Virus record (IMG/VR): IMGVR_UViG_3300037249_001405
Coordinates: 32,001-96,000 of that record
Direction: 5' to 3' (one strand)
From: a virus
Lineage: Duplodnaviria > Caudoviricetes
Length of the DNA stretch: 64,000 nt
A program made the position numbers and the translations under genes. The notes below the pieces were generated by a model, which was not told the origin of the DNA, did no database searches, and was given only the letters and a program-made list of their open reading frames with translations. Below, one piece after another: positions 1,199 through 59,595 of this stretch (position 1 is the first letter of the stretch; each line of letters begins with the position of its first letter).

Positions 1199-2968
1199 CT
1201 AACCCACTTCAACTAAGTAAACTGGGTATTTACTTCTAATGAAATAATTACATATACCAGCTACTAAACCAGCATTAGCTGAATTATCCTCAATAGTTGT
1301 TATAGTTATTTCATTATACTTATCTTCCATTTTTGTCGTAACAGCGCTAGAGTTTGGTAGTCTAGTTATCATATCCTTTGTTAGATCTTTCAATCTATCA
1401 TCGGCAACCATGTTGATTATCAGATTCATCTCACCTGATGATCTAGAAATAACTATACTAACTCTGCTCTTTAATTCATCGGCTTTCTTTGGGTCTCTTG
1501 TGAAATGAACACCTTCTTTAAATCCGGATGCTTTCAAATCGTCTACGACAGATGTCATTAATCTAGCATCGACAGTAGCTTTTCTATTGGATATATCGGA
1601 TCCTTTCTTTATAGCATGATGTAATGCACCTAATGCAGCACCAACTATAGAACCCGCACCCATGAATATAAGTGCTCTACCTAAATTTCCTCTACCACCG
1701 TCAGCAGCTCTTGATACAATTCCGGATAGAGTACCAACACCACCGCCGATACCAGCACCACGAATCATATCATCACTAAGGCTAAAGTCTTTTCTTTTGA
1801 ATTTAGCTCCACCCTTTCTTTCAAATATCGTATTTCCAGTAATAAAGTTTACTCTAATACCACCCCATAACATAGGTGCTATTACTTTATCCACTAGTGA
1901 ATAAATGTATGAAATATCGTCACCACCAACTACTTGAAGTTCTACTTGATAGCCATTCTTACACAATGTCTTTGCTGTATAATCAGCATTTTGGAAGTAG
2001 TGACAATAACTATCAAGGGCATCATTAATTATCTGTAATTCCTGACGAATTGGGTTATTAACGTACATAACTAATACACCAAATCTGAGTGTCATGTTAA
2101 CAGTAAATGAATCAGGTTTACCATCAACACAGAAAGGAACTACATACCTATCCCTAGTGTGGGTAGTTACTTTTGACCTTGAAGTTACCTTTCCACTAGT
2201 TGTTGTAGTAGTGTTATTATAATCATGTCCATAGTTATTGCTGTGACCACTATTATAGCTGCTATAAGGACTTGTATAAGATGTGTAAGAACCTCCTCCG
2301 TAGTGATGAGAGCTAGATGTTGTTTCTGTTGTTGTAGGTGATTCATAACCGTACTCATCTTCAATATCCATAGCATCCTCATGATAATATGAATCGATCA
2401 CATCAAGAAGATGAATAGTAGAAAGATGAGAATTAGGTGCTTTGAATTCAGATTCATCAGCTACTTTGTACAAATATGAAGCTAATGCAGTTACACCAGC
2501 AGCTAATAGACCACCAATAGCAGCACCTTGAGCTGGGCCTGCATGATCACCCATACCAGCGAGTGCACCAACACCAGCACCAACAGCGCCCATACCTGCT
2601 ACTAAACCAGGTGAGAACTCATAGGTTTTTCTCTTTCCGTCCTTATAGCCTCCTGATTCAATAGAAAATAGTTTATTTCTAAATTTAACGAAAAAACCTT
2701 CTTTTTTTGGCTGAGACTGCATAACTACTTGTGGTTGTGAATTACTCATTAAATCTTTATTAGTATTCATAGTATGATCTACTTTTGTAAGAGCATTTGT
2801 TAATTTATTCATTGCTTTTAGCTGCTCAGCCTGATTTTTATTTGCATCAGATAATCTTCTTCTATTTGTAGCTAAATTAGCAATAGAAAGACCCAATCCG
2901 GTGATTCCGGTAGTGGCCGATATCGCCTTAATTGGGTCATCTTGTATTAATTTTTTTAGTTTTGACAT
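1199..2968 (-). CDS. Putative virion-internal polyprotein with glycine-zipper membrane segments
   Basis: 589 aa; Gly/Ala-rich hydrophobic helices; KFRNKLF|S and KRKDF|S motifs separate the modules. Confidence 0.7.
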   Translation of the reverse strand: MSKLKKLIQDDPIKAISATTGITGLGLSIANLATNRRRLSDANKNQAEQLKAMNKLTNALTKVDHTMNTNKDLMSNSQPQVVMQSQPKKEGFFVKFRNKLFSIESGGYKDGKRKTYEFSPGLVAGMGAVGAGVGALAGMGDHAGPAQGAAIGGLLAAGVTALASYLYKVADESEFKAPNSHLSTIHLLDVIDSYYHEDAMDIEDEYGYESPTTTETTSSSHHYGGGSYTSYTSPYSSYNSGHSNNYGHDYNNTTTTTSGKVTSRSKVTTHTRDRYVVPFCVDGKPDSFTVNMTLRFGVLVMYVNNPIRQELQIINDALDSYCHYFQNADYTAKTLCKNGYQVELQVVGGDDISYIYSLVDKVIAPMLWGGIRVNFITGNTIFERKGGAKFKRKDFSLSDDMIRGAGIGGGVGTLSGIVSRAADGGRGNLGRALIFMGAGSIVGAALGALHHAIKKGSDISNRKATVDARLMTSVVDDLKASGFKEGVHFTRDPKKADELKSRVSIVISRSSGEMNLIINMVADDRLKDLTKDMITRLPNSSAVTTKMEDKYNEITITTIEDNSANAGLVAGICNYFIRSKYPVYLVEVG

Positions 2969-3058
2969 TTAATTGTAACTATTATAACTATTATTTTATA
3001 ACTTGTACATAGTAGTAATAATAGTCTTTTCTAAAAATTACTAACGTATGCACTACTA

Positions 3059-3835
3059 TTAATAAGTATAATCCGTTCTACCACGTTGATTCTTATACCA
3101 ATCAACTCTCTCTCTTCTAGCAGCTAATCTCTGAGCATCGCCCAAACGTCTGTTATACTCACTAATCTCTTCCTTACCTTTATTACGTTTATGTATAGCA
3201 GCAAGGCCTGCACCAAGAGCACCAACAGCGCCGCCAAGTATAGCACCTCTACCGGCACCACGTCCGATATTTCCACCTTTTCTGAACATATTAACGCCAG
3301 TTCCTATTGTAGCACCTAAACCAGCACCTACAGCAGCACCAGCTAGCGTAGTTCCGACAGCCCTACCTGCTGAGTATGGGTTTTTCTTTTTTTCCTGAGC
3401 AAGAACATCCGCGTCATTCATGTCACGAAGTGTGTTATATCTGTCATAATTTGTCACGGTAGCAAACATCTTTTCGATAGCGTAATCTACCCCGTCTTCA
3501 AATCCCTCACTATAGGTTTTATCTTTCTTAGTAGCTTTGTGAATACCGTAACCAGCGGCAGCTAATACTGGTGCAGCGGCAGCTGCAATCATACCAGCTT
3601 TACCCCACTTACCAGCCTTCATGTATCTATCCTTTACATTCTTTGGTAGATCTTTAATTTTATCCCATAGAGACTTTTCGTAATTTCCCCTTAAACCAGG
3701 GTCTCCTGCTGGTCCAATTGCTAAAGGACTGCTAGCAGGTGGTAACTTATCAGCAAACATCTTCTCAATAGCATAATCTACTCCAGCCTCGAATGCTTCA
3801 CTATACAATCTTTCTTCTGTACTCATTTTTATCAT
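3059..3835 (-). CDS. Leader-module glycine-zipper protein (two YSE-x-FE-x-G-x-DYAIEKMF modules)
   Basis: ERLYSEAFEAGVDYAIEKMFA and KTYSEGFEDGVDYAIEKMFA; GxxxG helices; probable start at 3826. Confidence 0.8.
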   Translation of the reverse strand: MIKMSTEERLYSEAFEAGVDYAIEKMFADKLPPASSPLAIGPAGDPGLRGNYEKSLWDKIKDLPKNVKDRYMKAGKWGKAGMIAAAAAPVLAAAGYGIHKATKKDKTYSEGFEDGVDYAIEKMFATVTNYDRYNTLRDMNDADVLAQEKKKNPYSAGRAVGTTLAGAAVGAGLGATIGTGVNMFRKGGNIGRGAGRGAILGGAVGALGAGLAAIHKRNKGKEEISEYNRRLGDAQRLAARRERVDWYKNQRGRTDYTY

Positions 3836-3861
3836 TTTTAATTTTTAATTTTTATTCTTGA

Positions 3862-5574: not shown

Positions 5575-5590
5575 AATTATATATTAATTT

Positions 5591-5893
5591 TTACACACCA
5601 GCGGAAGATTGTGCTTGCAAATCTTTACCTGCATCACTCAATCCTTGACCTAAACTCTTAGTTGCTTCCTTACCTATCTTATATGCGGCTACCCTACCTA
5701 TCAAGCTTCCTCCAGGAATTACGCCACTAAGAGCATTACCAGCCATTTCACCTATAGGAGACATAGCAGCACCTATACCTACACCTGTACTAACAATACC
5801 GTTATTAAGTGTCTTTCCTGTAGCATCCATTGCACCACCAGCGGTTTCTCCAAAGATACCAAAGGTTTTTCTTTTTAATCTGTATCTTGCCAT
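5591..5893 (-). CDS. Small Gly-rich leader-bearing protein
   Basis: MARYRLKRKTF|G followed by a Gly-rich hydrophobic stretch. Confidence 0.75.
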   Translation of the reverse strand: MARYRLKRKTFGIFGETAGGAMDATGKTLNNGIVSTGVGIGAAMSPIGEMAGNALSGVIPGGSLIGRVAAYKIGKEATKSLGQGLSDAGKDLQAQSSAGV

Positions 5894-6102
5894 TTTCCTA
5901 ATCTTCCTTGATTTAATTCCTTATTCATCTCTCTAATCTCCTTACCTAGATTACCTACACCAGAACCAAGTTCTCTTTTGGTCTCGTATCTGCTTAATCT
6001 ATTCATATCCATATCATATTTTCGATCACGAATAAATCCAGCATTACCTGATGTACCTATAAGTTGATTAGCTGAATAATGTTTATTAATGTAGACTATC
6101 AT
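5875..6102 (-). CDS. Small leader-bearing hypothetical protein
   Basis: MIVYINKHY|S; abuts or overlaps both neighbours. Confidence 0.65.
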   Translation of the reverse strand: MIVYINKHYSANQLIGTSGNAGFIRDRKYDMDMNRLSRYETKRELGSGVGNLGKEIREMNKELNQGRLGKWQDTD

Positions 6103-6743
6103 TATAGGTTAAGTAAGTATACCTTATAATTAATACCAAACGGTAATATCTTCAATGCTTTTACTGCATCCTGAATTGTTGGGAACTCTAATACAAGAGA
6201 TCTTTCTTTCTTATCGTACTTCAATGTTTCACCGGTCAACTCAGAAGTTTCATAGCTTAAATCAATGTTAGGAGTAAATGTTGCCCTGATATCTGGGTGG
6301 AACTTATCATCACTAAATAACTTTATTCTTTTATTTCCACTAGAAAAAGGAGCAGAGTTATTCTTCTGATATAATCTGTTTCTACTACCTAACTTTTGAT
6401 CATAATTTCCTTGATCTATATTTGGATCTGCCCACTCTGCATTCTCTAATGTCATACCAAGGTTTCCTATTTTATGCATTTTAGTATAACCGGGAAGCCT
6501 TACTTGGTCTGGCATTTTTGCTTTTGCTCCTATTTTTAAGTACATACGATAACGATCCTTATGTCCAAATGCTGTTGAGATTACAAATCTCTCAATAACA
6601 ACACTATTCTCTTTTAAAACAGGAAGCAAAGAGTGTTCATCTATGACACTGAACGGAATATCACGAGTATTTCTTTGCATTTCTACGTAAAGAGATCTCA
6701 TGGCATCGTATTCCGTAAATATCTTTTGTCTAAAAATTGCCAT
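6102..6743 (-). CDS. Hypothetical virion protein
   Basis: MAIFRQKIF|T leader and internal KLF|S; in the structural operon. Confidence 0.7.
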   Translation of the reverse strand: MAIFRQKIFTEYDAMRSLYVEMQRNTRDIPFSVIDEHSLLPVLKENSVVIERFVISTAFGHKDRYRMYLKIGAKAKMPDQVRLPGYTKMHKIGNLGMTLENAEWADPNIDQGNYDQKLGSRNRLYQKNNSAPFSSGNKRIKLFSDDKFHPDIRATFTPNIDLSYETSELTGETLKYDKKERSLVLEFPTIQDAVKALKILPFGINYKVYLLNL

Positions 6744-6759: not shown

Positions 6760-7131
6760 TTAACATACTACTGAAAGATTGTATTTCCTACCTAAAATTT
6801 CTAGAATATCATAAATAATACCCTCATGTTCACATTCTGCGGTTATTATTCTTTTTGTAGTATCTATACTAATTATATTTAGACGAAATATATCTTTCAA
6901 TAATTTCTGTGTATATCTATATAATTCTTTATCCTGAACACTTATTTGATAATTCCCATGATCATTGAGAATAAATGAGACAAGAACCATTGATTTTGAA
7001 TTGACTTTTGACGCAGCATCAGCCTGTTCAGGAGATATTTTATTGACTTTAATACCACTAGCATCGAAAAATTCTAATGCTTTAGGCATCATGTCAGTTA
7101 TGATTGTTTTCTTTTGTCTAAATGAAATCAT
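6760..7131 (-). CDS. Hypothetical protein
   Basis: 123 aa ORF; ATGA overlap with the upstream gene. Confidence 0.7.
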   Translation of the reverse strand: MISFRQKKTIITDMMPKALEFFDASGIKVNKISPEQADAASKVNSKSMVLVSFILNDHGNYQISVQDKELYRYTQKLLKDIFRLNIISIDTTKRIITAECEHEGIIYDILEILGRKYNLSVVC

Positions 7132-8231: not shown

Positions 8232-8960
8232 TTAATTAATCGGAACTACATCTTCCGTTACTAAATTAGAAAACTTTGGTTGAGTTTTTACTTTAACACC
8301 CTGGTCAATCTTAGTTATTTGTATATCATTAGCTGGATTATGAGCTGGAAGTGCTAATGGATTTGGAGCTGATCCTGGAGCCTGGCTACTATTAGCCGTT
8401 CTAGCTTGTGGTAATGCTAATGGACTTCCACCACCACTAACTGGTTTTACAGGATTAGGAGCTGATCCTGCATTACTTCTAGCTCCTGGATCATAAGGAG
8501 GTGGTGTAACCGGAGGTTTTGTTGTAGGTTGGGTTTTTTTACCAGCACTACTGGTTGATGCGCCACCGTTTGCAGTAATTCCAGCTTTCAGCTCTCTTAC
8601 TTTATTTGCAGCTGACATCTTTACAACATCATCACTCTTTAATGCATCTTTCATTGCCTGAGCTCTAGCTTGGTCACTCGCCCACTTTGCTTTATCTGTG
8701 ATACCAGCTTTCATCATGGCAGTAGCTTCAGCTGCAGCATTTTGGCCAGAACGAGCCATTTGATGCCAACCTAGTGCATTACCCATCCTAGTATGCATGT
8801 TACCAGCAAATTGTTGAGCATGTCTACCAAATAAACCAGCCTTAGCTCCGAAATGAGCACCAACTAATGCTCCCGTTGTTAACAAGCCATTCCTAATCCA
8901 ATGTGACTCATTACCTTGCTCTGGATTATCAAAATATTTTTGATCTAAATAAACTATCAT
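8232..8960 (-). CDS. Leader-bearing protein with Gly-rich membrane segment and Pro-rich tail
   Basis: MIVYLDQKYF|D; GLLTTGALVGAHFGAKAG; GSAPNP twice. Confidence 0.7.
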   Translation of the reverse strand: MIVYLDQKYFDNPEQGNESHWIRNGLLTTGALVGAHFGAKAGLFGRHAQQFAGNMHTRMGNALGWHQMARSGQNAAAEATAMMKAGITDKAKWASDQARAQAMKDALKSDDVVKMSAANKVRELKAGITANGGASTSSAGKKTQPTTKPPVTPPPYDPGARSNAGSAPNPVKPVSGGGSPLALPQARTANSSQAPGSAPNPLALPAHNPANDIQITKIDQGVKVKTQPKFSNLVTEDVVPIN

Positions 8961-9033: not shown

Positions 9034-10548
9034 CTAGATTCCGTAGTTGAAGGTAACCTTTTGTACGAGCTCAGGTGCTAGATATTTAATACCCTCTTGG
9101 TAGTAAATACCAGAAGCCATCTGAGTTGGGTTGTTGTAGTTACCAACAGTAGGAGTATCTGTCAAAGGCATGTAGATACCACGGGCCAAAGGAGCCATCT
9201 GACCATCCTGTGTCTTGATAATAGCATAGAATGTAGCTTCACTCTCATGTACATTCTCAGCAATATCAACAGAACGGAGTACAGGAATACCATTGTACCA
9301 ACCGAGCAAGTCGTTGATATAGGTCATCTTTGTGTTAGGTTCCCATTTTCCGATCATACCACCCTTCTGGAACTGGTTAGAAGCAGCATTACCTGCAACA
9401 TAAGCAGTTACAGTAACAGACTTAGTAGCCTTAACAGCTAGGTTAGCCTCTACGTGAATTAGATAAGAGTCAAATAGGTCTACTCTTGAACGATAGTCAT
9501 GGAACTGTTGACTCATCTCATTTACTGTGAGATTCAAATCAGTCATAACATCATCTCCAGTGTAATCCTTCTCGAGTGTGCTTACGAGCTTGTAGTTGAT
9601 ACACTTTGTGTAGAGCTCACGAAGCTTTGTGAATAGGAATGTAGCCATATCCGATCCAGTAGCTTTCTTCAAAGCACCAAGAGCAGCGATATTGTATTCA
9701 GCAACTAGCATATCCGGAACAGTGGATAGACCGATCTGTTGCATCTTAGCAATAAATCTCTTGTCGTTTGCGTGAACGTTAGAAGCACCATTTGTGTTAG
9801 AAGGAGTACCAGTTACATCCTCTTTACCGATTGCTACAAGAGTACTAGTAGCTGTAAGCTTATTAGCCAAAGCTGTAGTAAGCTGGAACTCAATAGTACC
9901 ATTGATGTAGTTGATGTTCTTTTTAACCTTTCCTGTAGTAGCGTCGATGATTGGCTCAACTACACCAGGAACTGCCATGAAGCTAGCCTGTCCATTATCG
10001 ATAAGCTCGAAAGTTTCAGTAACAGTTGTACCATTCTTAATCTCACCCTTGATTCTTACAGTACCAGGAACAATCTTCCTACCAGTTACAGTAGTAAAGC
10101 TTGCTGTTTTATCACCTGTTACAGTGAACTCTGTCTTGAAAGAACCAGTAGTGTTAATGTCCTGGTAGCTATCAGGTCCGAGGTTTGGAACAACCTGACG
10201 GAGATCAGTTACACCGAGAACGTCAAACCAGTAGAACAAACCGTTAGGTTGTTCAAAGTCACGTTCAATTGACATATAACCAGCGAAAGAAGATACATAA
10301 GATGCAACAGATGCATTGAAGTATTGGTTGCTCAATAGCGGAGTCTCAGCATAACCAGAGAAGGTTTTCTGAAGTAGGTTGCTATTTTGACCCATACCAA
10401 AAATGTTGTTCATCATATCTTCATTTCTACTGAACATCTTTGCGTATTCCTCAGAACGACGAATAGCATCGTCCATAGATACGGAACCACCTCTCAATGC
10501 TTCGAGCATCTGAGGAGTCTGCATAAAATCTAAATATTGATTAACCAT
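9034..10548 (-). CDS. Major capsid protein (T4 gp23-like)
   Basis: 504 aa; follows protease and scaffold genes; QPNGLFYWFD and GIYMPL...PTQMASGIYYQEG resemble gp23-family motifs; N-terminal AKMF|S and QKTF|S sites. Confidence 0.8.
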   Translation of the reverse strand: MVNQYLDFMQTPQMLEALRGGSVSMDDAIRRSEEYAKMFSRNEDMMNNIFGMGQNSNLLQKTFSGYAETPLLSNQYFNASVASYVSSFAGYMSIERDFEQPNGLFYWFDVLGVTDLRQVVPNLGPDSYQDINTTGSFKTEFTVTGDKTASFTTVTGRKIVPGTVRIKGEIKNGTTVTETFELIDNGQASFMAVPGVVEPIIDATTGKVKKNINYINGTIEFQLTTALANKLTATSTLVAIGKEDVTGTPSNTNGASNVHANDKRFIAKMQQIGLSTVPDMLVAEYNIAALGALKKATGSDMATFLFTKLRELYTKCINYKLVSTLEKDYTGDDVMTDLNLTVNEMSQQFHDYRSRVDLFDSYLIHVEANLAVKATKSVTVTAYVAGNAASNQFQKGGMIGKWEPNTKMTYINDLLGWYNGIPVLRSVDIAENVHESEATFYAIIKTQDGQMAPLARGIYMPLTDTPTVGNYNNPTQMASGIYYQEGIKYLAPELVQKVTFNYGI

Positions 10549-10568: not shown

Positions 10569-13010
10569 TTATCTGAAATTTTGAGTACTGTTATTGAGCC
10601 ATGATACTAGAGTGTCTTCAGGTTCGTTAACTTCATTGTAATCTACATCAGTGAAATAACGTTCCTCTTCGTCCTCATCGTAGTAATCATCGTCGTTGTA
10701 AGAGAATTGTGCCTCTTGTAGATCTGGTTCTGCTTGCTCTACTGGAGCAGCCTTAGCATTCATAATAGTAGCCTCAGCCTCTGCAGCAGCAGCTTGAATT
10801 GATTGAACAGCAGCTACAGCTTTGTCCTCAATAGTCTCGAGACTTGGACCTTGCTCTGCAGGTGCATTTATAGGATTACCGTTCTCGTCATACTCGATCG
10901 GATTTCCTTGCTCATCAAATTCTACAGGATTACCATTAGCATCTACTTGAATTTGACCACCATTAGGACCTGGTGCCCATTGTGTTCCTTGCTGAGGTGC
11001 TACTCCACCTTGCTGAGCCATCTGCATTTGAGCTTGAGGATCTTGCATCATACCAGGTTGGGTAACTTCTGCGAAGAATCTATCCATAATTATATCACCA
11101 GTTGAGTCATATCCATAACCTAACTCAGATCTGTAAGGATAAGATTTAATTTCTACTTCTTCATCAGAGTAGTATCTATCATCAGCATCCTCATCATCAG
11201 AATACATATTCACAGCTTCGATCAACTCCATATCGTCGTCATCAGCCTCGCCTGAATACATTCTTACAAGAGCATCCTCGTAAGCGTCATAGATAGAATA
11301 TTCTTTCTCTTCTACCTCGAGATCCCCTGTCAAATCCTCAGCTTCACTTTCTGAAATTGGAGTCAAATCTAATTTTTCACCATCAGATACAGCTTTTGTG
11401 AACTCACCAGATTCCTTGTCTTCGATTACAGCTGTTTCGTCATCAACAGGAGTGATTACCTCATCATCTGTCTCAACTTGCTCACCACTCTCAATAGCAT
11501 CCTGAATGTCATTTTCATCACCATCAGCATCTCCTGAGAATAGTCTAATCATGTAATCAGACATGATTTCATCTTCAGAGAAGAATTTCTCACCGTATTC
11601 ATCTGAATAGATCTCAGGTTCAGAATAATCTTTCTCCTTCAAATCATCCTCAGTAACAACATCTTCTTTCAAATCATCTGCCTCAGATTCTGAGATAGGA
11701 TTCAAATCAAGAGTGTCATCATCCATTACAGCTTTTGTAAATTCACCACTATTTTTATCTTCAATTACGGCAGTCTCACTATCAACAGGAGTGATTATCT
11801 CATCATCTGTCTCAATTTCCTCACCTTTTTCTATTGCACGTTCAACATCTTTCTGTGTATCAAGGTCACCCTCTGATGCATCAGAGAAGAGTTTTGTCAT
11901 AAAGTCTGTGTGATTTGAATAGAACTTAGTTAGATATACAGTATGATCTGAGAATTCAGCTTGTTCTGGTTCCTCAATATCATCTTCTGATTCTGCACCA
12001 AGATTTGCCATCAAATCCATAGCATAGTCACGAGCATCATCCTCGTTATCAAATACCTGAACACTAGCTACACCCCTTTCGGTTAGGTCATCTACAAGTT
12101 CTTGAGCTGATTCCTCATCATACTCAGGAGCATCTACAAGTACGTGATTCTCTGGGTCTACACCTACTACATGAAGTTGGTCATACATTTGGGAATCATC
12201 GATATCGTCGTCATTGAAGTTGTTTCCTTCATCATCATCATCACAACATTCGTCATCACAGCCTTCCTCATCTCCTTCACATAGCTCTGAATAATAGCGA
12301 TAGAGATCCTCGAGGTCTTCGTCGTAATTACTGAATTCCTTTGTGTCTAACTCTGTAACTTCCATCTCGTCGTCATCTAGAACAACCTTAGCTTGGTCTC
12401 CCGTAGACTCACTTGTAACAATCACTGCATTCTCATCATCTGGATCCTTTTCAACTTTTAGATCACCTACTTTAGCAGTGTCTTCAGATTCAATAACCTC
12501 TGCGAATATACGTTCACAGAATGCTTGATCAGAGAAAATCTTCTGTACTACAAAGTTATCTGTAGAAACACTAAACTCTCTCTCATTAGCTAGATCTTCT
12601 ACAAGTCTTTCGTGACCTGCTTCGAAGTTTAGTCCACCGTCCTCAAGATTTGGTGCTATAACGGATGTTCCATCCATATGAGCATCTACATCTTCATCTC
12701 TATTGCAATACACCTGACCCGGAGTTACACCATCCATTTCCGGATGGATATACCCCTCTAACTCAGCTGAACTTGCTGGATAGAGATCGTAGTTACCATC
12801 TTCACCTTGCTCGGCTAACGTAACTTCTCCATTTCCTTTATCTGTAATCGACACACGGCCATCGCCTTCGTCTTCATACCTTACTTCATCAGTGTCAACA
12901 ACGCCATTCTCCTTAGCATCTTCGATATCTTTTGCTACCTGACCTGTTAACTCCTCGTCGCCTTCGTCTGTAGCAGCAAAAAGGCGAGTCATAAATCTAG
13001 TATTATACAT
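10569..13010 (-). CDS. Highly acidic prohead core/scaffold-like protein
   Basis: 813 aa, D/E-rich; internal repeat (ETDDEIITPVD..TAVIEDK.SGEFTKAV twice); about 20 x-x-F/Y|S/A/T sites; directly upstream of the capsid gene. Confidence 0.7.
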   Translation of the reverse strand: MYNTRFMTRLFAATDEGDEELTGQVAKDIEDAKENGVVDTDEVRYEDEGDGRVSITDKGNGEVTLAEQGEDGNYDLYPASSAELEGYIHPEMDGVTPGQVYCNRDEDVDAHMDGTSVIAPNLEDGGLNFEAGHERLVEDLANEREFSVSTDNFVVQKIFSDQAFCERIFAEVIESEDTAKVGDLKVEKDPDDENAVIVTSESTGDQAKVVLDDDEMEVTELDTKEFSNYDEDLEDLYRYYSELCEGDEEGCDDECCDDDDEGNNFNDDDIDDSQMYDQLHVVGVDPENHVLVDAPEYDEESAQELVDDLTERGVASVQVFDNEDDARDYAMDLMANLGAESEDDIEEPEQAEFSDHTVYLTKFYSNHTDFMTKLFSDASEGDLDTQKDVERAIEKGEEIETDDEIITPVDSETAVIEDKNSGEFTKAVMDDDTLDLNPISESEADDLKEDVVTEDDLKEKDYSEPEIYSDEYGEKFFSEDEIMSDYMIRLFSGDADGDENDIQDAIESGEQVETDDEVITPVDDETAVIEDKESGEFTKAVSDGEKLDLTPISESEAEDLTGDLEVEEKEYSIYDAYEDALVRMYSGEADDDDMELIEAVNMYSDDEDADDRYYSDEEVEIKSYPYRSELGYGYDSTGDIIMDRFFAEVTQPGMMQDPQAQMQMAQQGGVAPQQGTQWAPGPNGGQIQVDANGNPVEFDEQGNPIEYDENGNPINAPAEQGPSLETIEDKAVAAVQSIQAAAAEAEATIMNAKAAPVEQAEPDLQEAQFSYNDDDYYDEDEEERYFTDVDYNEVNEPEDTLVSWLNNSTQNFR

Positions 13011-13030: not shown

Positions 13031-13954
13031 TTATAGTATATTTACTTTGTTACTTCCAGTTAGTGAGATAATACCATGCTTCTTTAATAAATCTAATATA
13101 TTACCTGGAGCATCTGGATATCTCTCGTCGATTGTTTTCTTAAATACTGGTAAATCTTGTGAAGATCCTCCGAATTCTACTTTCAAATCGTTTAAAATTC
13201 CGGAATCTTTACACCAATCATCACAATCTCCTTTCATTATATCAGAATCTTGTTGCGAAATTGGCATAATTCCGTGAGCTTTCTTGATAATTATGATTCC
13301 TTTTGGTGAAATTGAGCCTTTATTTGCCAAAGCATCTATAATTCTCTCTTTATCTTCTAAAGATGGACCACCACATAACTCGGAGCCACAACAAGTAATC
13401 TTTGGATCTAGATCCATTATTTTTGTAACAGATACGATTAATTTAGAGAATAGACGAGATTGAAGATAAGCGTTAGGGGAAATTTCTAGTTCTTTTCCTT
13501 CTACTGTACCAAATCCTCTCTCTTCCATTTCATCTGCAGAAATACCGAATAATTTTTCTGAATAACTAGCATCTATTCTTTTTCCTGAATAAATACCTAA
13601 ATTTCTTTCATAATCATTATCAGGTTCCGAGAATGATCTTTGAAACTCATCCTCAGCCTCTTCTTCGCTCAAGAAAAGAGATCTTCTATTTTTATCTATT
13701 ACGTTTAATCTATCTTTTGCTAATGGATTTCTATTAGCTATAACCTCTCTCTTATATGGTTCATGCTCAGTTTCCCACTTTATATTGAAACGAGTACCAC
13801 CACACTTAGGACAGAGGATACTAGAAGCTGATTGTGCTGTTTGTAGTTCAAAACCACAATCTTCACAAACTACCGGTCTTAATACAGTACCTTCATCCTC
13901 GGAGAATAATTTACGACGTACTGGATTAGCTGAAAATAATTTTAATCTAGCCAT
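13031..13954 (-). CDS. Prohead-associated protein with Zn ribbon
   Basis: CEDC...CPKC; KLF|S twice, plus RSF|S, KLF|G and RLF|S. Confidence 0.65.
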   Translation of the reverse strand: MARLKLFSANPVRRKLFSEDEGTVLRPVVCEDCGFELQTAQSASSILCPKCGGTRFNIKWETEHEPYKREVIANRNPLAKDRLNVIDKNRRSLFLSEEEAEDEFQRSFSEPDNDYERNLGIYSGKRIDASYSEKLFGISADEMEERGFGTVEGKELEISPNAYLQSRLFSKLIVSVTKIMDLDPKITCCGSELCGGPSLEDKERIIDALANKGSISPKGIIIIKKAHGIMPISQQDSDIMKGDCDDWCKDSGILNDLKVEFGGSSQDLPVFKKTIDERYPDAPGNILDLLKKHGIISLTGSNKVNIL

Positions 13955-15282
13955 TATTTACCCTCCTCTTCTTCTATTTCTTCATTATTAATTTCTGCTT
14001 CGCTATTTTCAGAACCAAATACGAAATTCTGTAATGATTTAATAAAGGTAGCATAAGCTGTCTGAATAGCCTGATATTTATTTTTGCTAACATAGCCTTG
14101 CTTCTCAGCTTCAGCTAATGCCTGCTTATATGGAATAAACATAGCTTGACTAGCCTTCCTTACTTCTACACCTAATGCACCAGCATTTAATAAAGTAACT
14201 AAGTTCTTTCCTTCTAGAACCATTGGTGTTACTACTTGCATAATGCTCAATACATCGGAAGCGAATAAAGATTTCATAACCTTCAAAGTAGGTTCATCAA
14301 TCTTAGAAATACCACCGCTTGCCTTTACTACTTGTTTATAATCAAGAATCAATCTTCTAAAACGCTCTCTTGGTGAAAGTTTAGCCTCTTTAACTCTCTC
14401 TTTAACAGATGTTACTGAGAAGGTTTTTTCTTTTACACCTGACGTAGGAGCTACTGATACTTCTACCTCATCTGGTAAAATTTCAATAACACCGACAGAA
14501 GAGAACTCTTTAACTTTCAATTTAGTAAATACCCCATCAACTTTCGATGTTTTAGCAGCATCACCTAAACCGAATGAATTAAGATCAGAGAATTCTTTTA
14601 CTTTTAATTCGCCATTTTTAGGTTGGGTTCTAACGAATTTATCATCCTTCTCTATTTCAGAGAATTCACGAACTAATTCATCATACACATCATCTGAATA
14701 ATTTGAAGTATCTGGTTTATCATCATATACTTCGGTAATTCTAGCTAGAGGTCCGAATGATGGATTTACAGTCCAGTCAAGAGATTTAATATTCTTGATT
14801 TGACGGCAAATATCAACACCGCTTGATTGTGAATCCCAGTAAGCTACAACTACTAGTGAACATGTTAATTTAATACCAGATCTAATAAGTGCCTTTAATC
14901 TCTTTATGTTTGCAGCGGCAATATCATCAAAACCATCTTCATCAAGAATATGAACAAGTGCACAAAGCCAGGGTCCTTCACCAGGCACATTCTCAATGTA
15001 AAACTCCTTTACATAATGAGTAAATGTTGGAACCCCGTCAGCTACACATAATCCAGCATCATCCCTACCAACTACTTTCTTCAAAGTAGCTGTATTTCCA
15101 ATAGTGCCAGGCATTGTTTCCATAGAACGTCCCCTATGAGTTAAGTAACCCATAGTTAATTTTCCATCAATGGAAAGTTTATATTCTTTGGATTCGAGAT
15201 AATTTTTGACAACTGTTTCGCCAATTAAACTACCATCAGCTGCATTTTTTGTTAAACTGCAGCATCTAACTCTAACATCCAT
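13954..15282 (-). CDS. Prohead core maturation protease (T4 gp21-like)
   Basis: GYLTH, LTCSLV and LDWTVNPSF parallel the gp21-family His, Ser and D-x-x-x-x-P-S motifs; C-terminal extension with VREF|S, VKEF|S twice and EKTF|S. Confidence 0.7.
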   Translation of the reverse strand: MDVRVRCCSLTKNAADGSLIGETVVKNYLESKEYKLSIDGKLTMGYLTHRGRSMETMPGTIGNTATLKKVVGRDDAGLCVADGVPTFTHYVKEFYIENVPGEGPWLCALVHILDEDGFDDIAAANIKRLKALIRSGIKLTCSLVVVAYWDSQSSGVDICRQIKNIKSLDWTVNPSFGPLARITEVYDDKPDTSNYSDDVYDELVREFSEIEKDDKFVRTQPKNGELKVKEFSDLNSFGLGDAAKTSKVDGVFTKLKVKEFSSVGVIEILPDEVEVSVAPTSGVKEKTFSVTSVKERVKEAKLSPRERFRRLILDYKQVVKASGGISKIDEPTLKVMKSLFASDVLSIMQVVTPMVLEGKNLVTLLNAGALGVEVRKASQAMFIPYKQALAEAEKQGYVSKNKYQAIQTAYATFIKSLQNFVFGSENSEAEINNEEIEEEEGK

Positions 15283-15399: not shown

Positions 15400-16503
15400 A
15401 TGATAGTATATATAACAAAATATTTCAATAATTTCGAAGAGGAAATAAAGAGAGAACTTCTGTCCCGGTTAACTGATGAGTTAGAAACAGGGAGTAGCGG
15501 GGATTATGAAGACTGGAGAAAATATAATAAGCAATAAGAGATTGGACTAGCTTACGAACAAATGAAGGATGAGGCAGCAGAGGAGATGAACGAAAGGATA
15601 AAGAAACAGATTGGAAAACCTCACCGTTACCAGGATGCTATAGCAAAGATAGATAAGTTTGAGAAAAAGAATAGGGATTTTAAACAAGGAATTGCTAAAT
15701 TCATGAATTATCACCCAGAACTACGAACTAAAGTAGCTTTTTCTAATAAAAATGAGGATACTGATTGTTACAAACCAAACGAAGATAAAATTATATTAAA
15801 AAAAGATAATTTCGGAAATTATGCTACAGCGGCTCATGAAAACGGTCATAGAAATGATCACTTATCTGGAGAAGCTGAAAAAAGAGTAATCTCTCTTAAT
15901 AATGATATCTTGGATAGAATGAATCGGTCTGGATATAATAATGAGAACTTAATGTGGAATATAAGGGAGGAACATGATAGAGTAACAATTCCGGGAGAGT
16001 TAGCTGCTAGTACAGATGCTTATTGGGATATGTTCAAGAATCCCAATGTATCCAATAAGCAATTGCATAAAGGGAATAAACACTTAATGGATGCTCTTGA
16101 TACATATAAATCCTCTTATTATAAATTAAACCCAGAATCTTTTGAATTAAATAAATTCAATGTAACACCGCAATTATTTGATTTTGATAAATATAATCAC
16201 TTAGGACTTACAAAGCAAGCAGCACAAACAATAGAGGAAATGAAACGAGATGGTGGTACAAAGAAATCAGAAAGTTTAAATATGATGCTAGAAAATCAAC
16301 TACCTAGCATGAAATATAAATTAAGTAGTTTGTTAAAGGAAAAAGGAATTTCAAAAGAGGAACTAAATAAGAAAGGACTTAAATTAGATGATCTCCTCAA
16401 ACGAATCCTTGGTGATAAAAACTTTACAGAGGAGTTAAAAGAAAGAGCGGGATTTTTAGATAAGTTGAGAAATTTAAAATATACAATAAAAAAAGTCAAA
16501 TAA
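15400..16503 (+). CDS. Leader-bearing HExxH metallopeptidase-like protein interrupted by an in-frame TAA (15535-15537)
   Basis: ATG 15400 gives MIVYITKYF|N in frame with ORF 15562-16503, with one TAA between; ATAAHENGH and downstream GELAAS. Confidence 0.65.
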
Positions 16504-16555: not shown

Positions 16556-16948
16556 ATGATATTAATATTAAAAAGAGTGACATTTTCGGATAACGAAAAA
16601 GAAGATAAAGGAATGTCAACTGGGAAAAAACTTGCTATAGCAGCAGGAGCGCTTGGTATCGCTGGACTTAGTGGCTATTTATTACATAAAAGAGCAAAAT
16701 TGAATAATAGTAAAAAAGTAGACATTGAAAAATCTAATAGTAACACTTCCAATAAATCGCGACAGATCAGTACAGCACCTAAACATAATAATGATGGTGA
16801 TCCTAAACCAAAACCCAATAATAACAAGTCTAATTCTGGTGGTAAGGACGTGTATGTTAAAGGTGGTGAGTACGTAGACAAAAATGGGAATAAATTAACT
16901 AGGGATGAAGTATTTGGTAATAAAAATAATAGATTAATATTTGAATAA
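16556..16948 (+). CDS. Leader-bearing single-pass membrane protein
   Basis: MILILKRVTF|S; LAIAAGALGIAGLSGYLL then basic residues. Confidence 0.75.
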   Translation: MILILKRVTFSDNEKEDKGMSTGKKLAIAAGALGIAGLSGYLLHKRAKLNNSKKVDIEKSNSNTSNKSRQISTAPKHNNDGDPKPKPNNNKSNSGGKDVYVKGGEYVDKNGNKLTRDEVFGNKNNRLIFE

Positions 16949-16949: not shown

Positions 16950-17381
16950 ATGAGTATAGAAGAAAGAATTTATAGTGAAGCATTTGAAGATGGTGTAAAT
17001 TACGCTATTCAGAGAATGTTTGGAGATGATGAAGAAAAGAAGCCTAAGAAGTGGCCTTATGTTGTTGGAGGCACTGCTGGTGGTATAGTAGGAGGCGCTA
17101 TTGGTACAGGAGCAGGTATGATTAGTGCTGGTAATAGTATAGTTAAAAAAGTCAAAGATACTAATAAAGCTCTCTATGATGAAGTGCAACGTGCCCCGAC
17201 TTGGGAAAAACTAAGTAAAAAGACCCAAGAAAAAATGAGTAAGTATGCAGAGGAAGCTGGTACTAGTATGCTGAAGAGAGGAGCTGTAGGTGGCTTAATT
17301 GGAGCTGGCATACCAGCTGCAACAGCAATAGCTTTATATCATCGCAAGAAAAAAGAATTAAATAAAAAAGATAGGGATTAA
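16950..17381 (+). CDS. Leader-module glycine-zipper protein
   Basis: MSIEERIYSEAFEDGVNYAIQRMF|G; two Gly-zipper helices; basic C-terminal tail. Confidence 0.8.
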   Translation: MSIEERIYSEAFEDGVNYAIQRMFGDDEEKKPKKWPYVVGGTAGGIVGGAIGTGAGMISAGNSIVKKVKDTNKALYDEVQRAPTWEKLSKKTQEKMSKYAEEAGTSMLKRGAVGGLIGAGIPAATAIALYHRKKKELNKKDRD

Positions 17382-19784: not shown

Positions 19785-20624
19785 TTACTTATTTTTCTTG
19801 ATTAAATTTACGATTCTTCTCGTATATTTATCCTCCATGTTTATTTTATCTGGATGTTTTTCAAGTAACTCTTTGTAATAATCTATATTATTCTTTTTAA
19901 CTGCCCCGAAAGGAAATTCCAGCTTAAGGTATTCTGAAGGTATATCTTTAAAAACTCTGATTTCATCCAAAGAATCCATTGTTTTATTAGTATTGTACCG
20001 TCTAACGTATTCATCATTAGGTAAATCTATTTTCCACCTAACGACACTACTACTTCTTTTCCCCGGATTATTAAAACTTGAGTTAACCCCGGTATCACCA
20101 TCAATATACTTAAACTGTTGTCTGGCACGATCCATTTGCTCATGTGGCTTAGATATATTAAGTAATTCGTTTTTAATATCATCCTTACTACCTAAGTAAG
20201 TACTTACGCTACCCCCAACACGATCTTTGCGGTCGGTATTTCCTTTTAAGATACCTTTTTCAAGGATACTATCTACAGTAGTTATTGGTTCGTATCTATG
20301 TAGAGTAACTACGTCAGGAAGTCCTTCTGGAGATTTAAAATTCAGATGATTTTTATGAAGTCCGTATTTAGGTCTAATACCACCATTAACTCCATACATC
20401 TCTGGGTGCCTCCTTCTATACTCCTCTCCATTTTTATAGTTTTTTAAGAATCTACTATTAGGATCTAGTTTTTCAGCTAAATCTAAGACCCTTTTAGGAG
20501 TCTCAACCCCCTCTATGTCTGATATTATCTTATAGATATTATTTTTTTCCCCTAATTTATCTAGGATGGCACTTCTTACTCTTCTTGAATGTATTCCAAA
20601 TAACTTTGTTCTTAACAGTTTCAT
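19785..20624 (-). CDS. Leader-bearing ADP-ribosyltransferase-fold protein (putative)
   Basis: MKLLRTKLF|G; TLHRYEP...DSILEKGI and DEIRVFKDIPSEYL; C-terminal region paralogous to 28013-29215. Confidence 0.55.
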   Translation of the reverse strand: MKLLRTKLFGIHSRRVRSAILDKLGEKNNIYKIISDIEGVETPKRVLDLAEKLDPNSRFLKNYKNGEEYRRRHPEMYGVNGGIRPKYGLHKNHLNFKSPEGLPDVVTLHRYEPITTVDSILEKGILKGNTDRKDRVGGSVSTYLGSKDDIKNELLNISKPHEQMDRARQQFKYIDGDTGVNSSFNNPGKRSSSVVRWKIDLPNDEYVRRYNTNKTMDSLDEIRVFKDIPSEYLKLEFPFGAVKKNNIDYYKELLEKHPDKINMEDKYTRRIVNLIKKNK

Positions 20625-22848: not shown

Positions 22849-23307
22849 TTAATACAAATATCCTTTACCTATAAATGATGCAGCTCTTTGTTGTAGAGCT
22901 GGGGCTGATGGGTTATTTCCTCCTCTAGAGGGAAATTCACTTTTGACGGTTGTATTAGTCATTTGTCCCCCACCATTCTTAAATGATTTATAGAATTTGT
23001 CTAACTCCCCTGGGGAAGTTCTATTTACTTCATTCCTAGCGTATTGAAAACTCTCTTCCATATCCTTTGGAAGTTTACCACCCTTTTTCATGTATCGTCT
23101 AAATATTTCTTCTTTATCACCAGATCCTGCCCAAGAATAAGCAGATCTATGCTTAGAAGCTATTCTCAACATTTTTTCTATAGTAGGGTGTGTATACATT
23201 TTTTCAACAGCATAATTCATACCGTCGCTAAATCCGGTTGCAGCAATATCATTTCGGTAGTCAAATTCAGTATATGTCTTTCTTTTTAATGTGAATGTAC
23301 TTGCCAT
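22849..23307 (-). CDS. Leader-module hypothetical protein
   Basis: LKRKTY|T; GFSDGMNYAVEKMY|T module variant. Confidence 0.7.
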   Translation of the reverse strand: MASTFTLKRKTYTEFDYRNDIAATGFSDGMNYAVEKMYTHPTIEKMLRIASKHRSAYSWAGSGDKEEIFRRYMKKGGKLPKDMEESFQYARNEVNRTSPGELDKFYKSFKNGGGQMTNTTVKSEFPSRGGNNPSAPALQQRAASFIGKGYLY

Positions 23308-30884: not shown

Positions 30885-31403
30885 TTATTTTTTATCTTTA
30901 TTATCTTTTTTCTTAGATAAATAATGTGAGAGAGCTCCTATACCAGCACCAGCTGCTACTGGTATACCGATAGAACGCGAAGTTACCTTTTTTGCTAGTT
31001 TTTCATAGGTTGGCTTAAGTCTCTTTATTTCACTCTCGTTTAATCTATTAAGTCCTCTAGCCACTTTAGCTTCCTCCGCTAATTCAGCTGCTTTTTTACT
31101 ATTTCCAACCATTCTGTGGTGCATAGAGTATTCATCAGCATACTTAGCTCGTCTTTCCATCTTATTTCTATCAGAGATAGCTTCTTGATACTTCTTATTA
31201 ATACTGTCAAATTCTTTTAAAGTATCTTTACCTACTAGATTACGCCCAAGGAAAGCCCCAGCACCAAAGCCTAAACCAGCACCAGTAAGTGAACTTCTTA
31301 GATAACTGCCCTCATTTTTTTCATCATCACCAAACATTCTCTGGATAGCGTAATTTACGCCATCTTCAAATGCTTCACTATAAATTCTTTCTTCTATACT
31401 CAT
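30885..31403 (-). CDS. Leader-module glycine-zipper protein
   Basis: MSIEERIYSEAFEDGVNYAIQRMF|G; two Gly-rich helices; basic tail. Confidence 0.8.
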   Translation of the reverse strand: MSIEERIYSEAFEDGVNYAIQRMFGDDEKNEGSYLRSSLTGAGLGFGAGAFLGRNLVGKDTLKEFDSINKKYQEAISDRNKMERRAKYADEYSMHHRMVGNSKKAAELAEEAKVARGLNRLNESEIKRLKPTYEKLAKKVTSRSIGIPVAAGAGIGALSHYLSKKKDNKDKK

Positions 31404-33375: not shown

Positions 33376-33939
33376 TTATTTATAATTGAGTAGGTTAATA
33401 TAATTAGCCTCTTCAATTGTAAAGGTCATTTCCCACTCGAAATAACCTCCTTGTATTAGAATACCATTTTCATAATATTCTACAATATACCGCTCTTTGT
33501 CGGTATTTTGAGGTACAGATAGAATAATTCCGTTAATGATATCCTTGCCTTTACCCCGAATGAGAAAAACTTTATCGCCAACATCAAATTTATTTGATAA
33601 TTCTAGTAAATAATCTTCCTCTCGCCTTATTCTTCCAGGAAATTGCTTCTTTTTACTTTTTCTTTTTTTCAGAAGGTATTTCATTTCCTGGAAAGTGTGA
33701 CTAATGTCACTAAGTTTTCTGTAACAATAAGAAAAGGAATCCCATGTTACTTCAAACCATACTGAGTCACCAAAGGTTGGATCCCCATCGGTTCTTTGAA
33801 ATATTTTCCCTTTGGGAATATATTTCGTGACGACCTCAATTGGATCGTAAAAAGATTTCATACGTCCTATCGTATAAATTTGATCACCTTCAGAGAAGGT
33901 TTTATAGGAACTGAATCTTTTTAATGTATTTTTATTCAT
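33376..33939 (-). CDS. Hypothetical protein
   Basis: 187 aa ORF. Confidence 0.7.
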   Translation of the reverse strand: MNKNTLKRFSSYKTFSEGDQIYTIGRMKSFYDPIEVVTKYIPKGKIFQRTDGDPTFGDSVWFEVTWDSFSYCYRKLSDISHTFQEMKYLLKKRKSKKKQFPGRIRREEDYLLELSNKFDVGDKVFLIRGKGKDIINGIILSVPQNTDKERYIVEYYENGILIQGGYFEWEMTFTIEEANYINLLNYK

Positions 33940-56309: not shown

Positions 56310-56316
56310 CTATTTT

Positions 56317-56390: not shown

Positions 56391-56408
56391 CAAAATTCTC
56401 TCTCACCT

Positions 56409-56677: not shown

Positions 56678-56872
56678 ATGGACGAATTTGTAATAGTAAC
56701 ATGGTCTGATAACATTCAGTTCTTCCTGGAACAGGAAGGTTTTAAAGAAAATGCCTATCTAATTAATGATGAGAAAGGTCTCGATGACTTTGGTTCAAGT
56801 GCTTACTTTGTAAGAAAAAGTTGGTATTTAGAAAACGAACCAAAACTATTAAAGGCACCAGAAGGATTGTAA
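56678..56872 (+). CDS. Hypothetical protein
   Basis: 64 aa; promoter motif at about 56634-56650. Confidence 0.7.
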   Translation: MDEFVIVTWSDNIQFFLEQEGFKENAYLINDEKGLDDFGSSAYFVRKSWYLENEPKLLKAPEGL

Positions 56873-56888
56873 AATAATAAACAAGAAA

Positions 56889-57419: not shown

Positions 57420-57433
57420 TAATACAAATAAAA

Positions 57434-57835: not shown

Positions 57836-57847
57836 AAACTAAATAAT

Positions 57848-58231
57848 ATGGAAATTACTGAAGATTACGTAAGTTTTGAAATAGCAAAACTTCTTAAAGA
57901 AAAAGGATTTGATATAAGATGTAATACGTACTACATATCAGATAATGAGATTGCAGCATTACCTATTACAAGAGATTTTAATAATCACGGTATTTACTTA
58001 TCCGCTCCAACTCTTCAAATGGTAATGAAGTGGTTGAGGGAAGTTCATGGATTATTTATATCCATTGATAATGATGACCTTGGCTATAATTGGCAAATAA
58101 TGAATGTCGATATTAGGTCAGATAACGGTGATCCTACTTATCTGACAGATTCCTATGCTGGTTATAAATCTTATGAAGATACTGTAGAAGCAGCACTTAA
58201 ATATTCTCTTTCAGAAAAAATTAATCTATGA
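57848..58231 (+). CDS. Bacteroidales-phage-type hypothetical protein
   Basis: [17 protein letters not shown]...[15 protein letters not shown]. Confidence 0.8.
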
Positions 58232-58584
58232 ACTACAAAGAATTAATAGAGTTAATTGATAATCAACATTTCACTGATTGCGGTGAAGCTAAAGATTACA
58301 TACTTAGTAATAAATATGCTGAACCGTATTCACCAAAATTTAATCCTTTCGGAAGTTATTACTTTACATTTGATGGGGTTAACTTGGTATTGTTAAAAGA
58401 ATCTGGTCAGGTTAAACTAGCTAAAGTAATTGCCTTGAGTGAGATCAAGAAGTTACGTGAGGTTACTGGGCGTGGAATGATGGACTGTAAAAAAGCATTA
58501 GTTAAATCGGATGGAGATTTCGACGAAGCCATCAAAATTCTTGAAACGATACCTAAAATACTCATATATAGAGTGAATGAATAG
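58228..58584 (+). CDS. Small protein with an EF-Ts N-terminal (UBA-like) domain
   Basis: [33 protein letters not shown] matches the EF-Ts N-terminal signature. Confidence 0.8.
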
Positions 58585-58683
58585 GAAGAATAAAATAATT
58601 AACTAGTAATATATTAAATTTACTGGTTAATTATTTTTTTTTTCTTACAAAAATCTTGATAATAGATTAAAATGTAGATAATT

Positions 58684-59595
58684 ATGATATTATATAGAAC
58701 AAAAAATTATGGAGTAGCGGATAGCGTTCGAAAGGCAAAGGGTGAATATTTAGATAAACTCTTTAAGGAAGCAAAGGAGAGGATAAAAGATACTGAATTA
58801 GCAAAAAAGAGATTAAGGGATAAAGAGGAATGGAAGAAGTGTTTAAATAATGAACGAAGAGATATTGATAAACACTACAAATCGGTTATTGATGATTCTT
58901 TAGAAGGTTTAGACTTTAGTGTGGTAAAGCGTAATATAGAAAAAGAGTCACATCAACCTTCAGATGAAGTAATATCAAGGATTTATGACAAGTATAAAAA
59001 TAAAGCTGATAATTTAGGTATTGATATCGTTATTGATTCGAACTTTAAGAGTTCTGGTAGGTATGATCCAGAACTAAAACAAATTATTCTAAAGAATCCA
59101 AAATCACTCACACTCATTCACGAATTAGAGCATGCGATTCAAGATAGAAATGAGAAAAAGTTTAGATATCTTCCAGGATTTGGTACTGGAATTGCTAAAA
59201 AAGATTACATGAGGCTTTATAATGGCAGGGAAAATGTTCATAAATATATCAAGTCTGTAGCATCAGAAGATGGAGCTATTATTGCGAAAACTAAAAAACT
59301 TTATTTAGAACCAGATGTCCCAGTTGATTATGTATTTGCTCAACACAACACTCCTTATATGCAACACATGAGAGCCCCGTTAGGTGATACAAACTTAATG
59401 AAGAATTATGCTGATATTTACTACAAGAACTGGATTGATCCTGAATTATATGGCAAAATAAAAGAGAATGCTAAAAAGATAGGTATTGATCTAGAAAAGA
59501 AGAGTAAAGTAGATAGAACACCAGGAACACCAGATGTAATAGAGAGAGTAAAAGAGTGGAATCTTGAAAAATTTGGTCATTCAAATATAAATTAG
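58684..59595 (+). CDS. Leader-bearing HExxH (zincin-like) protein
   Basis: MILYRTKNY|G; GRYDP..KQIIL...TLIHELEHAIQ...SEDGA. Confidence 0.7.
   Translation: MILYRTKNYGVADSVRKAKGEYLDKLFKEAKERIKDTELAKKRLRDKEEWKKCLNNERRDIDKHYKSVIDDSLEGLDFSVVKRNIEKESHQPSDEVISRIYDKYKNKADNLGIDIVIDSNFKSSGRYDPELKQIILKNPKSLTLIHELEHAIQDRNEKKFRYLPGFGTGIAKKDYMRLYNGRENVHKYIKSVASEDGAIIAKTKKLYLEPDVPVDYVFAQHNTPYMQHMRAPLGDTNLMKNYADIYYKNWIDPELYGKIKENAKKIGIDLEKKSKVDRTPGTPDVIERVKEWNLEKFGHSNIN

Follow-up and report, generated by a model that had tools for sequence, protein, structure and literature searches.

The locus studied here raises a simple question: why should so many apparently unrelated proteins of one phage begin with the same short peptide? 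The locus is a stretch of 64,000 nucleotides (hereafter the window) spanning positions 32001-96000 of a 210,316-base phage record, IMGVR_UViG_3300037249_001405, which is linear, about 56% complete and has a genome G+C content of 34%. The peptide is a leader of 8-12 residues that consists of a methionine, two or three hydrophobic residues, R/K, x, K, x and F/Y. A first-pass annotation had quoted 12 such N-termini, all of which we recovered where it had placed them, and had proposed a new system in which the phage's head protease cuts the leader and more than 20 unrelated proteins are loaded into the capsid. Judging from the sequence patterns described below, we consider it likely that the phage possesses a capsid-targeting and processing system resembling that of T4, with a specificity for a basic P3 and an aromatic P1 residue instead of Glu.

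To count leaders, we defined a strict motif as [K/R]-x-[F/Y]-[S/G/A/T] with the aromatic residue at positions 5-13 of an open reading frame (ORF). It is found in 27 of the 223 ORFs of the record, compared with 5.4 ± 2.3 expected when whole proteins are shuffled and 6.5 ± 2.5 when the first 20 residues are (maximum 15 in 1000 shuffles), and its aromatic residue lies most often at position 9 (12 ORFs), then at position 11 (6 ORFs). These cases are concentrated in the morphogenesis region, where 20 of 64 ORFs carry the motif as opposed to 7 of 159 elsewhere (Fisher p 2e-7), which bears out the proposed enrichment over both composition and non-structural genes. Also borne out is the near-absence of the motif from N-termini between 34 and 58 kb of the window, with a chance-level 1 case in 21 ORFs. 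Counted along entire proteins, [KR]-x-[FY]-S appears 58 times in the morphogenesis region (15.7 expected) and 33 times in the rest of the record (35 expected), and two complete relatives have 30 and 36 strict N-terminal motifs where 12.9 and 12.5 are expected. The window itself holds 17 real strict cases, namely two core proteins (genes are named by the window coordinate of their start; here 13954 and 13010) and 15 genes outside the core operon, together with about seven relaxed ones. The figure of more than 20 cargo proteins is thus reached over the whole record or with relaxed leaders included, and not with the strict non-core genes of the window. Similarly, the tagged proteins are unrelated by BLAST, which sorts 35 tagged bodies into 32 groups, while many of them nonetheless have glycine-zipper helices in common.

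Several observations indicate that the leader is selected as protein. Synonymous codons vary among leaders, the Ser after the aromatic residue is encoded by both TCN and AGY, and a k-mer search for a shared upstream DNA motif or late promoter found none (best p ~4e-3 among thousands). The terminase and sheath of the record have no leader, and the motif falls within the first 70 residues in 2 of 6 and 4 of 21 of their homologs, respectively. Also leaderless are a Tpt1/KptA RNA 2'-phosphotransferase (E 3e-46; window 38670-39224, minus strand) and a ClpB-like AAA+ ATPase (window 50997-53903, plus strand).

A candidate enzyme for such a site lies just upstream of the scaffold and capsid genes. Since PDB sequence searches gave no match, protein identities were taken from folds; Pfam and PHROGs likewise returned no significant match for the protease, scaffold, capsid or most of the cargo. 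By its modelled fold, ORF 15282-13954 is a T4 gp21-type protease: the model (predicted local distance difference test, pLDDT, 90) has T4 gp21 (5jbl) as its top match (Z 11.6, root-mean-square deviation 2.7, 131 residues aligned), followed by herpesvirus proteases, and its H49/S142/D169 align with H85/S140/D168 of T4. Eighty-five homologs were found; H49, R52, D75 and S142 are invariant in 72 homologs, and D169 is present in 71 of these 72. Behind the catalytic domain, a linker carries four motif copies (F207, F231, F260 and F288) and leads into a helical C-terminal part. At least two linker copies are present in all 45 full-length homologs, down to about 30% identity, and motif density in the linker is 14-fold that of the catalytic domain. 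T4 Arg142 aligns with a conserved Val144; this residue and the invariant D75 may line, respectively, a hydrophobic pocket for P1 and an acidic one for P3. When the protease domain was modelled in complex with the 18479 N-terminus, the prediction scored 0.13 (mark 0.32), and we count it neither for nor against the proposal. As separate observations, the helical C-terminal part is conserved (about residues 290-430; window 13954-14400, minus strand) and possibly acts as a scaffold-like tether, and some distant homologs stop after the catalytic domain (160-180 aa), with the motif copies in the next ORF (L008:324-830).

The same motif marks the proteins that such a protease would be expected to process. 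The scaffold contains 17 copies where 0.83 are expected, which would yield fragments of 10-140 residues. In a set of 18 scaffolds, K/R stands two positions ahead of the aromatic residue in 78% of [FY]-S pairs (6.5% by composition), and S/A/T follows 96% of [KR]-x-[FY]. Glu-type motifs, unlike [KR]x[FY], are not clearly enriched in the scaffold, zinc-ribbon protein, protease or capsid. In the capsid protein, the two motif sites near the N-terminus are fixed among homologs except for the middle residue, which varies. Its fold has the P1 head as best structural match and is also that of T4 gp23, and a cut at residue 63 would leave 441 residues; the mature P1 capsid has 448 (PMC9024508). The profile alignment with T4 gp23 is too weak for placing the propeptide boundary, and residues 42-133 of the model have low confidence. 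Separately, residues 135-243 form a confidently modelled insertion domain with Ig-like matches (Z 5-6) that varies in length among relatives. A T4-like portal is encoded just outside the window (record 97399-99225, L132:2399-4225), and its N-terminal region carries the motif, as it does in each of the nine homologs whose start is intact. Here, about 43 kb separate the portal gene from that of the terminase, and 50 kb separate it from the head operon; in relatives it is close to both.

The first-pass description of motif sites in the capsid, protease tail and scaffold was accurate, with one correction of gene identity: the leader at 13954 exists and belongs to the zinc-ribbon core protein (ORF 13954-13031), the protease being ORF 15282-13954. 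In T4, gp21 shreds the core, removes 65 residues of gp23 and trims internal proteins (PMC9958956), with gp22/67/68 forming the core and IPI, IPII, IPIII and Alt bearing a capsid-targeting sequence (CTS; PMC9026906, PMC9958956). That the placement of the motif here copies this substrate list supports the motif as a site of a gp21-type protease, and we think it very probable that the phage's own prohead protease cleaves it. If so, the cut would most probably fall after F/Y, because a small residue occupies P1' at the sites mapped in SPN3US and P1, and the only small conserved residue here follows the aromatic one.

The leader itself appears to have two parts. In 248 pooled leaders, P8-P6 are hydrophobic and P5 is R/K in 76%, whereas scaffold sites are acidic at the same positions; the mean leader charge is about +2.5, compared with -199 for the scaffold. 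Among 206 leaders picked without a filter on P1', a small residue follows the aromatic one in 83%. The 7131 family keeps the upstream half-leader in nearly all of its 23 homologs, while the strict cut motif occurs in none of the 23, and for this reason an address half and a cut half look separable. This parallels the T4 CTS, in which residues 4 and 7 serve targeting and residues 8 and 10 processing, and an uncleavable tag is still packaged (PMC9026906). Half-leader families are the best argument from sequence for an address function, if an indirect one.

Gene fusions add support beyond the evidence of the first-pass annotation, as does the portal motif. ORF 2968-1199 has no leader at its own N-terminus and whole leaders at both module junctions, which are its only two motif copies in 589 residues; in alignments, the stand-alone tagged genes of relatives begin at its residues 93-94 and 389. 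Internal leaders are likewise retained in a 535-aa fusion of a relative and a 317-aa gut-phage fusion. Overall, 10 of 14 projected junctions, which are not independent of one another, carry the motif, compared with a 9% background. Such internal leaders fit a cut site, since a translation signal would not persist inside a protein. The double-site module that opens 16950, 31403 and 3835 recurs inside 3835 and 18479, two genes whose bodies are 93% identical.

Taken as a mechanism, the motif would be the recognition site of the phage's prohead protease, with Lys/Arg at P3, Phe/Tyr at P1 and a cut before a small residue. During prohead assembly, the basic and hydrophobic upstream half of the leader would dock a protein on the acidic scaffold core, and the last four leader residues would provide the cut that frees it. 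Once activated, the protease would shred the scaffold and the zinc-ribbon protein, remove 63 capsid residues, trim the portal and its own tail, clip leaders and split fused cargo, and the tagged proteins would remain in the head. The conserved tagged set would probably furnish an inner core or ejection apparatus, and the variable set (glycine-zipper, HExxH and ADP-ribosyltransferase (ART)-like proteins) would probably be delivered along with the DNA. These steps deserve different degrees of belief. We expect that most tagged proteins are packaged in the head; injection of the variable cargo seems to us only slightly favoured, and for the leader alone being a sufficient address we see an even chance.

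Some findings weigh against this proposal and lend strength to its competitors. Forty-two SPN3US head proteins are uncleaved (PMC10052503), so cleavage and packaging need not coincide. Of 21 homologs in the 5574 family, 16 follow K-x-F/Y with a residue outside the set S/G/A/T, usually a bulky one. Cargo functions rest on sub-threshold matches, and a search for leaderless homologs of tagged accessory bodies found none, so that the grafting of tags onto foreign genes is unsupported. The strongest competitor holds that the motif is a protease site and nothing else: tagged head-core or ejection proteins would be recruited by their folded surfaces and merely have a short propeptide trimmed, as happens with numerous head proteins in SPN3US and phiKZ, with no portable address. 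The conservation and synteny of about half of the tagged genes, the many uncleaved proteins packed by SPN3US (PMC10052503) and the loss of the N-terminal leader from ORF 2968 all suit this idea. It nevertheless strikes us as unlikely, given that the upstream positions (P5, P6-P8) are conserved across unrelated proteins and acidic in the scaffold, that the 7131 family has the upstream half without a cut site, and that isolated, fast-evolving genes distant from the operon keep the leader. Conversely, the motif could be a docking peptide for a core protein or exosite that is uncut, or cut in some proteins only, as the persistence of K-x-F/Y in the 5574 family would allow; some scaffold copies also belong to conserved repeat units and might have a structural role. 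The strong selection for a small residue after the aromatic one, in scaffolds and leaders alike, and the clustering of copies immediately behind the protease domain and where the capsid propeptide ends make this distinctly improbable.

It is also conceivable that the protease cuts the motif at another bond, for example after Lys/Arg. The HK97 protease cuts after Lys, and the basic residue is conserved as much as the aromatic one. Yet the position following K/R is unconstrained (L, E, T, V, N, F), the mapped sites of related enzymes have the form P3-x-P1 with a small P1' (A-x-E-S, cut before Ser, in SPN3US, PMC10052503; E120-S121 in P1, PMC9024508), and the replacement of T4 Arg142 by Val144 would suit a hydrophobic pocket; we rate this option a shade below docking. 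Far less probable is that a host or phage Prp cysteine protease cuts an F-A bond after a 9-residue leader, even though leader length and the bond between F and a small residue are as in long L27 (PMC9405229, PMC5744158). The Prp motif has Gln at P3, and Q-x-[FY]-small N-termini occur at chance level in three genomes (0-1 per genome); PF04327 was found in none of three genomes (G000-G002, two of them complete), in which controls matched; Bacteroidota is not among the Prp phyla listed (PMC9405229); and the phage encodes a protease of its own, whose tail contains the motif. We rejected Prp/L27 processing, as the phage has no PF04327 match and its leaders have K/R, not Gln, at P3. Equally negligible is the idea that the pattern stems from 5' codons rich in A/T, from a signal for translation or from a repetitive DNA element. 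A G+C content of 34% would favour the A/T-rich codons of K, I, F and Y, but shuffles of the first 20 residues give 6.5 cases and not 27, synonymous and TCN/AGY codons vary without a common upstream k-mer, and the motif is maintained inside proteins. Shuffles, internal leaders and codon variation therefore refute it. What remains best supported is capsid targeting combined with proteolytic processing.

With respect to what would be carried, the tagged genes (Table 1) fall into two sets. About half of them (e.g., 6743, 6102, 5893, 5574, 3835 and the 2968 modules) are syntenic, conserved in at least 20 related loci and located between the capsid and tail genes; they are probably standing parts of a head core or ejection apparatus. 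A few weakly match proteins of ejection or of the virion interior (P22 gp7, E 0.01-0.02; phrog_342, E 0.005), and these matches are leads only. The first-pass interpretation was sound regarding protease identity, T4-like motif placement and selection at the protein level, and went too far in speaking of injected effectors. The variable set comprises glycine-zipper proteins, one of them above the Pfam Gly-zipper cut-off, four HExxH zincin-like proteins (58684, 15562, record 122105 and record 156174) and, as a lead only, two ART-like paralogs (20624 and 29215); the structural neighbours of 20624, again a lead, are DarT/PARP/Arr at 0.84-0.86 with TM <=0.47. Alt of T4 is a packaged ART. More generally, ART and metallopeptidase domains turn up repeatedly among the proteins that phages inject (PMC7824862).

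Nine of ten homologs of 58684 retain its leader, with body identities as low as 34%; the start of the tenth lies about 75 residues further downstream. The ORF at 15400, listed by the first-pass annotation as a gene of its own, does have a relaxed leader, but its 45 codons are the 5' end of HExxH gene 15562-16503, in the same frame and separated by one TAA. This stop codon (15535-15537) may reflect a recent pseudogene, an assembly error or readthrough. Homologs of 15562 were sought in four records and none was found. A suppressor tRNA for the TAA was considered and rejected: the odd tRNA at window 62672-62745, reported as unassigned by ARAGORN, resembles tRNA-Lys(UUU) with an irregular anticodon arm when inspected by eye. 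Elsewhere, the protein at 19206-19781 (minus strand) has about five tandem 8-residue Pro/Asn-rich units ahead of its C-terminal Gly/Ala helix.

Table 1. Coordinates in the window of tagged and leader-related genes and of the head genes discussed in the text.
Feature	Position	Strand	Basis or remark
Three-module fusion, modules separate and mostly leader-bearing in relatives	1199..2968	-	leaders at F101, F395
Two-module glycine-zipper protein, tagged; double-site module also internal	3059..3835	-	sequence
Conserved tagged Gly/Ala-rich protein; most homologs K-x-F/Y + bulky next residue	3862..5574	-	
Conserved small tagged Gly/Ala-rich protein	5591..5893	-	strict tag in 18/22 homologs
Conserved tagged 75-aa protein	5875..6102	-	tag in 19/20 homologs
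Conserved tagged 213-aa protein	6102..6743	-	tag in 23/23 homologs
Conserved 123-aa protein, upstream half-leader only (M-x-x-F-[RK]-x-K)	6760..7131	-	23 homologs
Gly/Ala-rich protein, relaxed leader (K-Y-F then D)	8232..8960	-	
Major capsid protein	9034..10548	-	K37-x-F39-S40, K61-x-F63-S64 invariant in 36 homologs
Acidic repeat scaffold, net charge -199	10569..13010	-	role inferred from position and composition
Zinc-ribbon core protein	13031..13954	-	6 motif copies (0.6 expected), two within first 17 residues
Prohead protease, T4 gp21 / herpes assemblin fold (residues 1-190; H49, S142, D169)	13954..15282	-	fold, homologs
Relaxed leader and HExxH zincin-like body, one in-frame TAA at 15535-15537	15400..16503	+	
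Small basic protein, one Gly/Ala helix, relaxed leader	16556..16948	+	
Tagged glycine-zipper protein with double-site module	16950..17381	+	
Tagged mosaic: leader, double-site module, 3835-like body, second module, coiled coil, Gly/Ala helix	17409..18479	-	
Degenerate double-site module (motif at residue 21) and Gly-rich helices	18589..19134	-	
Relaxed leader, extra site at residue 24, C-terminal Gly/Ala helix	19206..19781	-	
Tagged ADP-ribosyltransferase-like protein (lead only)	19785..20624	-	structural neighbours
Large terminase, untagged	20939-22834		adjoins tagged 22849..23307
Tagged 152-aa protein beside large terminase gene	22849..23307	-	
Tagged distant paralog of 20624, C-terminal Gly/Ala helix	28013..29215	-	
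Tagged coiled-coil protein, C-terminal Gly/Ala helix	29334..30329	+	
Tagged glycine-zipper protein; first 28 residues = those of 16950	30885..31403	-	
Tagged 619-aa helical protein, Gly-rich helices near C-terminus	31406..33265	-	
Two motif copies in first 15 residues, upstream half atypical; lower confidence	33376..33939	-	
Tagged HExxH zincin-like protein, tRNA region, 43 kb from protease	58684..59595	+	

The phage belongs to a wider clade. Its capsid protein is 59-79% identical to those of other relatives and 73% identical to those of many human-gut records (up to 401 kb), which bear the same motif system and which, from their size and interrupted protease gene, we take to be Jug phages (PMC12880540); the 73% thus refers to presumed Jug records and not to named Jug genomes. 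As the Jug groups Alpha and Beta have a capsid identity of about 95% between them (PMC12880540), the phage appears to be a relative of the Jug phages and not a member. Extrapolation from 210 kb at 56% completeness gives a full genome of about 375 kb, the Jug range being 360-402 kb; Jug phages have Bacteroides or Phocaeicola as hosts. Two short inserts break the protease gene in L011:5013-6660 and in the majority of the human-gut loci (L010-L089), the first of them lying directly after the catalytic Ser codon region (the break in L060 differs); this is consistent with the group I introns reported for Jug phages. A search of a phage collection found no cultured close relative. Two contigs of 371 and 376 kb with the clade capsid gene (L133, L134) lie within metagenome-assembled genomes labelled Mycoplasmatota and Bacilli, and are probably mis-binned whole phage genomes rather than hosts. 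The head genes of a distant relative, IME392, are without any motif copy, from which it follows that the leader and cut code is specific to the clade.

How the proposed system compares with known ones determines how much of it is new. The similarity to T4 extends to protease fold and triad, a leader of about ten residues ending in a P3-x-P1 site followed by a small residue, many scaffold sites, a capsid propeptide of similar length (63 residues predicted here, 65 in T4), seemingly separable targeting and processing halves, and an ART-like cargo. Nevertheless, the predicted site is [KR]-x-[FY] and not Glu-terminated; the leader is basic and unrelated in sequence to the T4 CTS; about 20-30 genes are tagged here compared with four in T4; the portal carries a motif, whereas T4 gp20 is unprocessed (PMC5694885); and the 250-residue protease tail and the fused cargo with internal leaders set the phage apart as well. 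With phiKZ gp175 and SPN3US gp245 it would share the use of one gp21-related protease for internal head proteins, capsid and portal (PMC5694885, PMC10052503), a cut in the enzyme's own C-terminus and a P3-P1 motif with a small P1'; SPN3US, too, processes its portal (PMC5694885). Those phages differ in a Glu P1, often long propeptides and, in SPN3US, mostly uncut head proteins, and no genome-wide short common leader has been described there (PMC5694885, PMC10052503).

In the Dar system of P1, an N-terminal DarB signal packages a foreign reporter, and the capsid fold and mature capsid length (448 residues, 441 predicted here) are similar, while P1 cuts at E120-S121 and its Dar proteins have no consensus N-terminus (PMC9024508). 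Processing by Prp, as in L27 and in the capsid and scaffold proteins of the staphylococcal phage 80alpha, provides a precedent for an aromatic P1 (an F-A bond) in phage head proteins after a short common leader (PMC5744158, PMC9405229); it differs in relying on a host cysteine protease with Gln at P3 in Firmicutes-type hosts, and Prp was not found here. The main text of the study on Jug phages (Chen et al. 2026, PMC12880540) contains neither the leader nor a protease specificity, and our literature search, made mostly without subscription papers, found no description of this leader code in Jug-related phages or with an enzyme of the gp21 type. To speak of a new system is thus an overstatement, as portable N-terminal capsid addresses are already established for T4 and P1; what is new is this code and its scale.

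If our reading is correct, the gp21-type family would gain a basic-P3/aromatic-P1 specificity, T4, phiKZ, SPN3US and P1 all cutting after Glu. A more ambitious version, which we find possible but would put at somewhat under an even chance, is that the whole gut and rumen jumbo-phage clade uses a two-part peptide code: the address half alone would load any protein, the cut half would provide an aromatic-P1 site, and genes would gain the tag, fuse into polyproteins that the protease splits and swap motif-bounded modules, so that the injected proteome (membrane-inserting glycine zippers, zincins and ART-like enzymes) could be read from sequence. More broadly, half-leaders and fusions that occur in nature are relevant to the questions of which partner a capsid address binds and how address and cut site are kept apart. 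Should the code hold, a few dozen unannotated genes would become candidate head or injected proteins, and the internal virion proteome could be predicted for a large clade of uncultured phages, abundant jumbo phages of the human gut among them.

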